Virus record (IMG/VR): IMGVR_UViG_2630968414_000015
DNA length: 40,846 nt
Reading direction: 5' to 3' (one strand)
Origin: a virus
Taxonomy: Duplodnaviria > Heunggongvirae > Uroviricota > Caudoviricetes
Shown: positions 7,326-9,242 of the stretch, one piece after another
Position numbering within the stretch: position 1 is the stretch's first letter
Layout: the number at the start of each line of letters is the position of its first letter
Notes under the pieces: model-generated
Told to the model about the DNA's origin: nothing
Databases searched by the model: none
What the model saw: only the letters and a program-made list of their open reading frames with translations
Made by a program: the position numbers and the translations under genes

Positions 7326-7351
7326 CCCTGAAACCTTCGGTTTACGGGATA
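7326..7351 (+). other. gix-like recombination site (gin-proximal)
   Basis: GAAACC-TT-CGGTTTACGGGAT; shares the 11-bp core GGTTTACGGGA with the inverted site at 8700-8725. Exact 26-bp register is uncertain. Confidence 0.55.
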
Positions 7352-7695
7352 CTGTAAACAGGGCCGCGAATGCCCTGCCATCGAACGGAGCGGCTGTTGC
7401 AGCGAATAAACTCGCCACTCCAAGAAATATTAATGGTGTCCCATTTGACGGAACGCAGGATATAAATATTACATCGGGGATGACGCAGTCTGTGGCTGAC
7501 TCACGTTATGTTCAAAGCATTCGAAGAGGTTCAAGGTCAACGATTGGAATGCAATATAATATTTTTGAGGTTCCTGACGGATGCGTACTTACAGGGCTTG
7601 ATGTCGCTGGTGATGGTAATGCAACGGTAACCGCATATTATCGACCTGTTCAGTTTCTGATAGATGGTTCGTGGAAAACAGCTTCCAGCGCATAA
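7339..7695 (+). other. Silent alternative tail-fibre C-terminal cassette (Sv'-like), no start codon of its own
   Basis: Frame-1 translation from 7339 (GLRDTVNRAANALPSNGAAVAANKLATPRNINGVPFDGTQDINITSGMTQSVADSRYVQ...) parallels residues about 196-255 of the expressed fibre, then diverges to a different C-terminal tip ending YYRPVQFLIDGSWKTASSA; stop at 7693-7695. Confidence 0.7.
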
Positions 7696-7774
7696 AAGTG
7701 CAGTAGTTCAAAAAACAGATTATCTGAATAAATATATGATGATTTTGTCTTTTCAACAAAAACAAGGTGAAATA

Positions 7775-8296
7775 ATGGAGCTTATTAACGTAAAACGATA
7801 TTACCCGGAACACAAACCCTATGGTGAGGATGTTCAGTATTTCCAGAGTGAGGACGGAAGGGATTTTTATGAATCTATCCCGCTTTTCACAAAGAAATAC
7901 AAACTCTGTATTTCGCCTGTAACGGGTATTATCTGCTCTGTTGCTGAAGATGTCTCTGCTTTATATCCGGCAGGTTTTACTGTTGTTGAAGTGGACGAAC
8001 TGCCGGAAGGTGTGAATATTGACGGTAACTGGCAGTTTTCTGATGGCCTGATATCAAAGGTGCCGGTAAACTGGAAGACGGTTGCTGAAAAGCGCCGCTC
8101 ATCGCTGCTCCAGGAAGCCAACGAAACTGTGGATGACTGGAAAACGGAATTAAAACTGGACATGATTAGCGATGAAAATAAATTACAGCTGACGCGCTGG
8201 ATGGCGTATATCCGACAGCTTAAAGAAATGCACTTTAATGATATTGCCAGTGAGGGGCATTACCAGGCGATTCCCTGGCCGGAAAAACCGGAATAA
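7775..8296 (+). CDS. Tail fibre assembly protein (Tfa/U-like), co-oriented with the silent cassette
   Basis: C-terminus ...WMAYIRQLKEMHFNDIASEGHYQAIPWPEKPE resembles the Tfa chaperone family; AAGGTGA 7 nt upstream of ATG 7775. The longer ORF from 7664 overlaps the cassette and is less likely. Confidence 0.7.
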   Translation: MELINVKRYYPEHKPYGEDVQYFQSEDGRDFYESIPLFTKKYKLCISPVTGIICSVAEDVSALYPAGFTVVEVDELPEGVNIDGNWQFSDGLISKVPVNWKTVAEKRRSSLLQEANETVDDWKTELKLDMISDENKLQLTRWMAYIRQLKEMHFNDIASEGHYQAIPWPEKPE

Positions 8297-8330
8297 TTCA
8301 GAGGGTGCATTCAGCACCCTTTTCTGTGGT

Positions 8331-9242
8331 TTACACTGAACTTACCGTTCTCCAGGCATTATTAATATAAATCTGAACCGGGCGATAATAGACCCCACCG
8401 ATATTGTCCGCAGACCGGGAGCCGGTTTCCTGCACGTTAATTCCGGAAAGCATACAACCGGAAGGTGCGCTGTAATTCCATGACATTTCATTGCCTCCGG
8501 GTGAATGATAGCTCTGTGCTCCAAGCTGAACATTCTGTACATACCGGCCATCTGCGGTTGACTGCGTCATTCCTGACGTGATGTTGATATCCAGCGTTCC
8601 GTCAAAAGGAACACCATTAATATTTCTTGGGGTGGCGAGTCTGTTTGCTGCCACGGCGGTTCCACCCGATGGCAGGGCATCAGCAGCCTTATTTACCGTT
8701 TCCCGTAAACCAACGTTATCGATAAAAGCGCCTTTATCCGGAATGTCTGCGCCGTTCTGCTCCCTGCGCAGGTAACGGTTATCACCTTCGCTTTTGCTGT
8801 AAACATCCAGATTATTACGGGCGGTTCCCGCATTCTCCAGGTCGGCAAGGTTCTGATCCTTCGCCAGAGCATTAACGTCACCGGGACCAAGACTGTTTTT
8901 TGTGGCAAGCGCCCCAAGACCAAGATAACCACGGGCAAGACGCTGGGCTTCCGCACCGGCATCAGCAATTTCTTTCAGGTTGTTTTTCCGGGAAAAGGCA
9001 TTCGCAGCGATAATGGCTTTAATGGACAGCGTAAGCTGGTTTAACTGCGCCTTATCCGGCTGAATACTGGCTTCAGCCAGAATATTCAGCAGTTCGGCCT
9101 GGAGAATATTCAGCCAGTCCTGACCAATCCAGCTGATACCTTTTTGTCCGTCACCTTCGGTAAACCAGGTGGTGGTATTACTCTGCGCCGGTGCCAGCGC
9201 AGGCATATTCGCCACGCCGGAATTATTATCAACATGGAACAT
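8331..9242 (-). CDS. Tail fibre protein (S-like), currently expressed variant
   Basis: Last late-operon gene before the invertible segment; start ATG 9242 overlaps the upstream stop (TAATG); the C-terminal 130 aa lie inside the invertible segment. An upstream start at 9296 is possible. Confidence 0.75.
   Translation of the reverse strand: MFHVDNNSGVANMPALAPAQSNTTTWFTEGDGQKGISWIGQDWLNILQAELLNILAEASIQPDKAQLNQLTLSIKAIIAANAFSRKNNLKEIADAGAEAQRLARGYLGLGALATKNSLGPGDVNALAKDQNLADLENAGTARNNLDVYSKSEGDNRYLRREQNGADIPDKGAFIDNVGLRETVNKAADALPSGGTAVAANRLATPRNINGVPFDGTLDINITSGMTQSTADGRYVQNVQLGAQSYHSPGGNEMSWNYSAPSGCMLSGINVQETGSRSADNIGGVYYRPVQIYINNAWRTVSSV
8700..8725 (-). other. gix-like recombination site inside the tail-fibre gene
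   Basis: Minus-strand read TTATCGATAACG-TT-GGTTTACGGGAA; about 21/26 match to the Mu/P1 gix-cix consensus as I recall it (TTATCCAAAACC-TC-GGTTTACAGGAA); in frame (IDNV-GLRE). Confidence 0.65.

Follow-up and report, generated by a model that had tools for sequence, protein, structure and literature searches.

A Gin-type invertible tail-fibre module with a single chaperone gene in an Sp18-type Mu-like prophage of enterohaemorrhagic Escherichia coli

Invertible tail-fibre segments are a textbook form of host-range bet-hedging in phages, and in their accepted layout each alternative fibre tip is accompanied by a chaperone of its own. The viral record IMGVR_UViG_2630968414_000015, a stretch of 40,846 nucleotides referred to here in its entirety as the window, carries a segment of this kind with only one tail-fibre assembly (tfa) gene, and that gene follows the silent tip and runs head-on into the expressed fibre gene. 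How, then, does a switch with two tips manage with one chaperone? An earlier note, made from the sequence alone, took the locus for a Gin-driven invertible fibre segment that was either caught in a chaperone-less state or had degenerated after losing one tfa gene. We find that positions 6709-9242 are the Gin-type invertible host-range module of an Sp18-type Mu-like prophage of enterohaemorrhagic Escherichia coli (EHEC). On balance, and with limited confidence, we favour as the best explanation of the whole a switch resembling the G segment of phage Mu, built on a conserved one-tfa design in which both tips share the Tfa protein, the copy in the window being probably frozen.

The invertible tail-fibre segment

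Over 6600-9400, dozens of complete EHEC genomes (O157:H7, O26, O103 and O145:H28) match the window at 100% identity. In strain Sakai the counterpart of the module lies in prophage Sp18, a 'Mu-like phage' (genes ECs_4989-4992), and the entire window is an Sp18-type prophage, from its mom end through to the transposase genes. Along the window the module consists of gin, a first recombination site (site A), a tip cassette that lacks a start codon (tip2), a spacer, tfa, a hairpin, and the fibre gene, which carries the second site (site B) and the expressed tip (tip1). Asadulghani et al. 2009 (PMC2669165) reported the host-specificity region of Sp18 as invertible, scored it atypical and described it as 'distinct from those of Mu'. 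In the literature we found no description of a single tfa shared within an invertible segment, nor of the allele with an extra C at site A (the +C allele) that is described below, and a systematic survey of inversions (PMC9881135) does not mention chaperones.

Adjoining the segment on the minus strand is a gene for a 186-aa serine DNA invertase of the gin type (6709-7269). Its product, a small serine recombinase of the invertase subfamily, matches the Pfam families Resolvase (175 bits) and HTH_7 (54 bits), aligns over residues 1-182 to the Mu Gin structures 3UJ3 and 4M6F (E 2e-91), and has Ser9 within a YIRVSTNDQ motif. Genomes of either orientation have this same protein annotated (WP_000904930.1). 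In Mu, the Fis-dependent recombinational enhancer is located in the 5' part of gin.

The fibre gene (8331-9242, minus strand) opens with a constant N-terminal part, Sc, of 177 aa (8712-9242), which shares 48% identity with SfMu S across 200 aa, and its last codons, after site B, encode the variable tip1 of 126 aa (8331-8711). Tip2, a silent cassette of 118 aa (7339-7695, plus strand), lacks a start codon at the site and is 57% identical to tip1, so the locus holds two alternative tip cassettes in inverted orientation. Residues 1-198 of the fibre (Sc and the start of tip1) align to residues 1-191 of Mu S (5YVQ_A, E 4e-49), including the GL(R/Q)ETVN site, and the last 74 aa of tip1 align to Mu S residues 435-503. 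The earlier note had described about 50 nearly identical codons after each site, followed by divergence; the shared start and the divergence are borne out, but the degree of likeness was overstated, as the 58 residues that come directly after each site agree between the tips at 49 positions (84%), and over the last 60-70 residues identity drops to about 37-40%. When genome contigs were scanned with the fibre, the real relatives outside E. coli came only from Citrobacter braakii and Edwardsiella; the remaining matches were rejected as fibre relatives, only the short fibre repeat (residues 194-240) having matched.

The 11-mer GGTTTACGGGA occurs exactly twice in the window, at 7339-7349 on the plus strand and at 8701-8711 on the minus strand, and both copies translate in frame as Gly-Leu-Arg. 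By itself the 11-mer is weak evidence, because at one mismatch shuffled sequences average 0.6 matches, and two are attained by 13 of 100. Both copies are enclosed by a 185-nt inverted repeat (7330-7514 and 8536-8720, 77% complementary) and belong to longer, gix-like sites. Site B, internal to the fibre gene (8700-8725), reads TTCCCGTAAACC-AA-CGTTATCGATAA on the plus strand, and site A, proximal to gin (7324-7350), reads ATCCCTGAAACC-TTC-GGTTTACGGGAT. Site B falls in the codons for ...FIDNVGLRETVN, the homologous position of Mu S being ...FIQNLGLQETVN; the crossover codons themselves are NGADIPDKGAFIDNVGLRETVN in the window fibre and NGADIPNKPLFIQNLGLQETVN in Mu S. Thus the inverted, in-frame sites of the earlier note stand, but the 11-mer is not the crossover core that it was taken for: it is the inner half-site, and the core dinucleotide lies just outside it.

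To look for inversion in nature, the inverted sequence was constructed in silico and searched against complete E. coli genomes, a match being counted at 80% or more of the length. For the element overall, 182 complete genomes matched in the window orientation and 23 in the flipped one; seven of the flipped records have at least 99% identity, the best five 99.9%. One flipped locus (L001) differs from the construct by one unrelated base change, plus the absence of the C found at position 7338 of the window, and encodes an in-frame fibre of 295 aa (Sc-tip2) followed by tfa. A further lineage, with a Tfa 68% identical to that of the window (L052/L053), has likewise been caught in both orientations. 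The switch works in the element as a whole, in that it flips in nature, and both the Gin-driven segment and the proposed exchange of tip1 for the cassette at 7339-7695 are supported. In the mechanism that we propose, the invertase would recombine the two inverted 26-bp gix-like sites by crossing over at a 2-bp core, and would in this way join Sc either to tip1, as in the present state, or to tip2.

The extra base at site A

Site B has the regular 26-bp form, with 12-bp half-sites spaced by 2 bp. Site A departs from it, with 3 nt between its AAACC and GGTTT ends and C7338 as the extra base. The site A of Sakai (L002) and of the flipped L001 lacks this C (...GAAACC TT GGTTTACGGGA), and the sites of these two loci, written as outer half, core and inner half, are ATCCCTGAAACC-TT-GGTTTACGGGA and TTATCGATAACG-TT-GGTTTACGGGA. 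The 26-bp form is shared by Sakai, L001 and the sister alleles L003, L005, L007 and L046. In L003, L005, L007, L046, L052, L053, C. braakii (three sites) and SfMu the core is TC at every site, and in all 10 other loci where both sites were found the core dinucleotide is equal between them, leaving the window as the sole exception (TTC versus TT). Such natural co-variation across alleles marks the dinucleotide as the crossover point.

Site A can be read in two ways, either with a TT core and a displaced inner half-site or with a TC core and a displaced outer half-site, and in neither reading (TTC, or TC with a shifted half-site) is its core identical to the TT of site B. The cuts made by serine invertases are staggered by 2 bp, and two cores that differ leave ends that cannot be joined when inverted; one base change in a single hix core is enough to block ligation in the inverted orientation (PMC4817059). 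Under either parsing, site A should therefore be unable to yield a ligatable inverted product with site B, and were C7338 nevertheless carried along with the segment, the fibre would be frameshifted and would stop after 200 aa. We know of no invertase site with a 3-nt (TTC) spacing that has been described as functional. Because the 2-nt overhangs of the two sites in the window no longer match and the half-sites are not normally spaced, locking is to be expected, and C7338 has probably frozen the window copy in its tip1 orientation. This 1-bp insertion in the crossover region of site A, which the earlier note overlooked, is the real defect of the window.

The +C allele is genuine, being present in genomes from many laboratories with a pseudo-ORF (open reading frame) annotated across it. 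In the four +C genomes examined for this (L057-L060, 9684-9870), the annotation pipeline PGAP has site A crossed by a minus-strand 'frameshifted hypothetical protein', which is the annotation footprint of the extra C.

The orientation survey is consistent with locking. The exact +C junction, as an 80-mer, occurs in 36 complete-genome records, every one of them in the window orientation, and no record with a flipped junction carrying the C on either side was found among complete genomes. The otherwise identical allele without the C (-C) stands at about 107 genomes in the window orientation, a count estimated by spread sampling, to 10 flipped. Compared with all -C alleles (~122:30), the ratio of 36:0 gives p = 0.0009.

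Could the extra C instead be harmless, the switch still active, and the 36:0 a product of shared ancestry or chance? Several points weigh in this direction and against locking. Compared with the closest allele (~107:10), the survey is non-significant (one-sided Fisher p = 0.06), which leaves locking unproven by the survey alone; the -C allele is itself found ~90% in the window orientation; and the statistics treat genomes as independent though they are related, so that the survey is no proof. Moreover, that C7338 is an insertion in the window and not a deletion in Sakai is inferred by parsimony. On the other side stand the 2-bp stagger with its demand for identical cores, the identity of the cores in every other locus where both sites were found, and the frameshift that a moving C would cause. 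We consider a harmless C unlikely, though it deserves to be taken seriously, and retain locking as the probable consequence of C7338.

Prophages with the +C allele are inserted at a different place in each of four serogroups: a lambdoid portal gene (O26), yoaF (O103), the urease cluster (O157) and another portal gene (O145). The allele was therefore mobile after the insertion arose and, if locked, moved in the tip1 state. A frozen +C allele would offer a natural marker for testing what the switch contributes to prophage spread among EHEC lineages.

The single tfa gene and the tips that it may serve

The tfa gene (7775-8296, plus strand) encodes a protein of 173 aa that belongs to the Tfa family by sequence, matching Pfam PF02413 (Caudo_TAP) with 67.3 bits against a cutoff of 22.1 (E 1.9e-18) and Mu U (5YVQ_B) with E 2e-15. 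A six-frame tblastn search of the whole window with Tfa, and Pfam scans of every minus-strand ORF downstream of 8331 (7263-8317), gave no second tfa. As the earlier note had held, this sole Caudo_TAP gene is co-oriented with the silent cassette, and the fibre gene meets only convergent DNA; the Mu arrangement, with a co-oriented tfa for each tip (U and U'), is not found here. The 34 nt between the two convergent genes hold a GC-rich hairpin (8300-8322), a likely and possibly bidirectional terminator that is flagged terminator-like on the plus strand. Its RNA folds on the two strands have energies of -14.2 and -14.7 kcal/mol (z-scores -3.3 and -4.0), and the equivalent hairpin of a related locus, L054, is flagged terminator-like on the minus strand; such a hairpin would halt both converging transcripts.

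The one-tfa layout recurs in L007 (94% identical in DNA, and lying as a Mu-like insert inside Stx phages), L005, L046 (Tfa 72% identical), L052/L053 (68%), L055 (60%) and C. braakii (L008); in the last, a fibre of 472 aa comes first, then tfa in convergent orientation, another tip and an invertase. The single-tfa layout is the normal and conserved design of the family. Of note, the C. braakii locus has three gix-like sites with the common core TC (4812, 6864 and 7230), one in the fibre gene and two opposite, which points to more than two cassettes in this switch, here too with one tfa.

The substitution pattern of tip1 speaks against a degenerate state. Across lineages tip1 has 87-97% amino-acid identity, a synonymous divergence (dS) of 0.2-1.4 and a ratio of nonsynonymous to synonymous divergence (dN/dS) of 0.06-0.16. 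Between the window and L007, dS of tip1 is 0.97 and its dN/dS 0.11, the dN/dS of tip2 and Sc being 0.11 and 0.13. Judged by these values, tip1 is the most conserved part of the module, under strong purifying selection, and is in all likelihood functional. A separate observation concerns the history of the tip: the dS of 0.97 (window 8331-8711 against L007 2501-2878) stands beside a near-identical tfa (dS 0.009), which argues that the tip was exchanged by recombination while the chaperone remained unchanged.

Which tip does the Tfa fit? According to PMC9608196 (citing North et al. 2019), Mu Tfa binds the tip of the fibre through its N-domain, and its C-domain is responsible for trimerisation. 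The N-domain of the Sp18 Tfa (residues 1-95) shares 69-70% identity with the Tfa of Rac-SA53 and of L048/L049, a gin-less Mu-like prophage of E. coli, and the tips that precede tfa in Rac-SA53 and L048 are 66-69% identical to tip1 and 35-38% to tip2. With the Tfa of Hafnia phage yong1, which comes after a tip 58% identical to tip2, the same N-domain shares just 40% identity. Because its N-domain resembles the partners of tip1-like tips, the sole Tfa would, by homology, be of the cognate type for tip1, the very tip that is convergent with it. Furthermore, L054 (2748-3600) has lost gin and nearly all of tip2, and its tfa is intact and convergent with the tip1 fibre; the Tfa cluster of L054 numbers 236 member sequences. 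Together, the N-domain identities and the retention of tfa in L054 lead us to regard one chaperone shared by both tips as most likely.

A shared Tfa would have to be made in both orientations, and thus needs a transcription route independent of the orientation of the segment. In the flipped state tfa would be co-transcribed with Sc-tip2; in the present orientation it would be expressed from a separate plus-strand promoter whose transcript also reads through the silent tip2 ORF. Upstream of tfa lies an AT-rich spacer of 79 nt (7696-7774, plus strand), a candidate regulatory site, and the gap between tip and tfa measures 51-121 nt in all one-tfa loci versus 1-14 nt where the fibre gene and tfa are simply transcribed together. 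From lineage to lineage, the spacers show no alignment. In a Sakai time-course on 70-mer oligonucleotide arrays (PMC2241611, Table 2), ECs4990 (tfa) and ECs4991 (the tip2 ORF) rise by log2 values of +2.13 and +2.12 at the transition to stationary phase, and no other gene number from the Sp18 region appears within the examined stretch of that table. These genes correspond to window positions 7775-8296 and 7480-7695, respectively, and the Sakai reference genome is in the window orientation. As far as this stretch of the table goes, the joint rise fits a plus-strand transcript that runs through the silent cassette and tfa independently of the fibre operon.

This expression route is nonetheless the weak step of the shared-chaperone reading, and several results count against it. 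A sigma-70 scan of the window gave no promoter upstream of tfa; for L052, L054 and C. braakii, promoter scans gave conflicting results that shuffled sequences would also yield; and by inspection no late-promoter motif was common to the tfa spacer and the regions upstream of com/mom, lys and I. The array data come from uninduced lysogens whose orientation mix is unknown, and the one table is no measure of late expression (PMC2241611). The pairing of Tfa with tip type, for its part, rests on co-occurrence in two non-invertible phage types.

A rival reading is that tip1 needs no chaperone in cis, either folding unaided or borrowing the Tfa of another prophage, with the resident tfa reserved for tip2. 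The gene order, which places tfa after tip2 only, speaks for this possibility, as does the wealth of EHEC prophages with a tfa, complementation between prophages having been documented in Sakai (PMC2669165). However, the Tfa N-domain sides with the partners of tip1-like tips (69-70%) and not with the partner of a tip2-like one (40%), L054 retains tfa despite the loss of tip2 and gin, and the spread to four serogroups with different prophage sets disfavours any one particular helper. We therefore hold an unaided or externally helped tip1 to be quite unlikely, and a Tfa shared by both tips the better account.

Spelled out, the degenerate switch of the earlier note would mean that a second tfa after tip1 was lost and that the fibre of the present orientation cannot fold, so that its virions lack fibres or fail to infect and productive phage comes from the flipped state alone. 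This reading gains something from the tip1-like tips of SfMu, P2-like phages, Rac-SA53 and L048, each of which is directly followed by tfa, a chaperone being the rule for such tips, and from the lack in our locus of a second tfa and of a clear promoter for the existing one, but we regard it as very improbable: tip1 keeps its low dN/dS across lineages with saturated synonymous sites, about 85-90% of genomes hold the window orientation, the +C allele, known only in that orientation, has reached its four insertion sites in four serogroups, the same layout persists where Tfa identity is down to 60-72%, and in Citrobacter as well, the Tfa looks cognate to tip1, tfa is transcribed in Sakai, and the DNA of Sakai Sp18 is efficiently packaged, with Sp18-derived Mu-like particles seen (PMC2669165). 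The other option of the earlier note, a chaperone-less state of the switch, is likewise not supported.

Extended to the family as a whole, the shared-chaperone reading would describe a switch with two tips (in Citrobacter possibly three) and a promiscuous Tfa made in both orientations, by way of the late operon when tfa points the same way as the fibre and from a promoter of its own, reading through the silent cassette, when the two converge. The +C alleles would be frozen, single-host-range derivatives that are still spreading between EHEC serogroups; we offer this wider picture tentatively, and with more doubt than conviction. If a conserved one-chaperone version of the switch is real, one Tfa can serve diverged tips, which would bear on the engineering of fibres for phage therapy and on the prediction of host range from sequence. 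The findings refine a known system and introduce no new principle.

Neighbouring genes and known systems

Beyond gin, the window encodes a protein of ~680 aa with a DUF6645 domain and a sialate O-acetylesterase-like SASA domain (5005-6609 and 2120-2578, minus strand). Its gene sits between gin and com/mom in all Sp18-type prophages and is uninterrupted (2040 nt) in Sakai and other genomes; in the window it is broken by an IS66-family element at 2567-5004 (ORFs 2638-3039, 3036-3383 and 3433-4971), the flanks of which overlap by ~11 bp when compared with L057. The protein could be cargo, or a second host-recognition or enzymatic tail protein. Sp18-type prophages are often nested in other prophages, having inserted in lambdoid portal genes (O26 and O145; L057 and L060, ~4700-4860), and they also lie inside Stx1a and Stx2c phages (LC727881 and LC727895).

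Among known systems, the module is closest in plan to the G segment of Mu (also of D108 and SfMu). It shares with that segment an adjacent Gin-type invertase, an Sc homologous to Mu S, an inversion that swaps C-terminal tips, a crossover in homologous ...NGADIP-K--FI-N-GL-ETVN codons and a Tfa homologous to Mu U, with com and mom at the prophage end. In Mu and SfMu, however, the arrangement is Sv-U and U'-Sv', each tip having its own tfa 1-3 nt after it (in SfMu the order is S-U / U'-S'-gin), whereas the module in the window has only one, placed 79 nt beyond tip2 and facing tip1 head-on. A further difference is the length of the variable parts, ~300 aa in Mu versus ~120 aa in the Sp18 module, and the DUF6645/SASA esterase gene between gin and com/mom sets the Sp18 type apart from Mu.

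In its recombination sites the module resembles Hin/hix, Cin/cix of P1, Pin of e14 and Min of p15B, which likewise use 26-bp sites with 12-bp half-sites ending in AAACC and a 2-bp core. The requirement of these invertases for identical cores (PMC4817059) is supported by the TT/TT or TC/TC pairs in 10 loci, and the window departs from them in the 3-nt spacer (TTC) of its site A. Finally, the tip and Tfa pairs of Rac-SA53 and L048/L049 are like those of Sp18 in the sequence of both partners, tip1 and the Tfa N-domain, and unlike them in arrangement: there, tfa lies 2-14 nt after the fibre gene, on the same strand and without an invertase.

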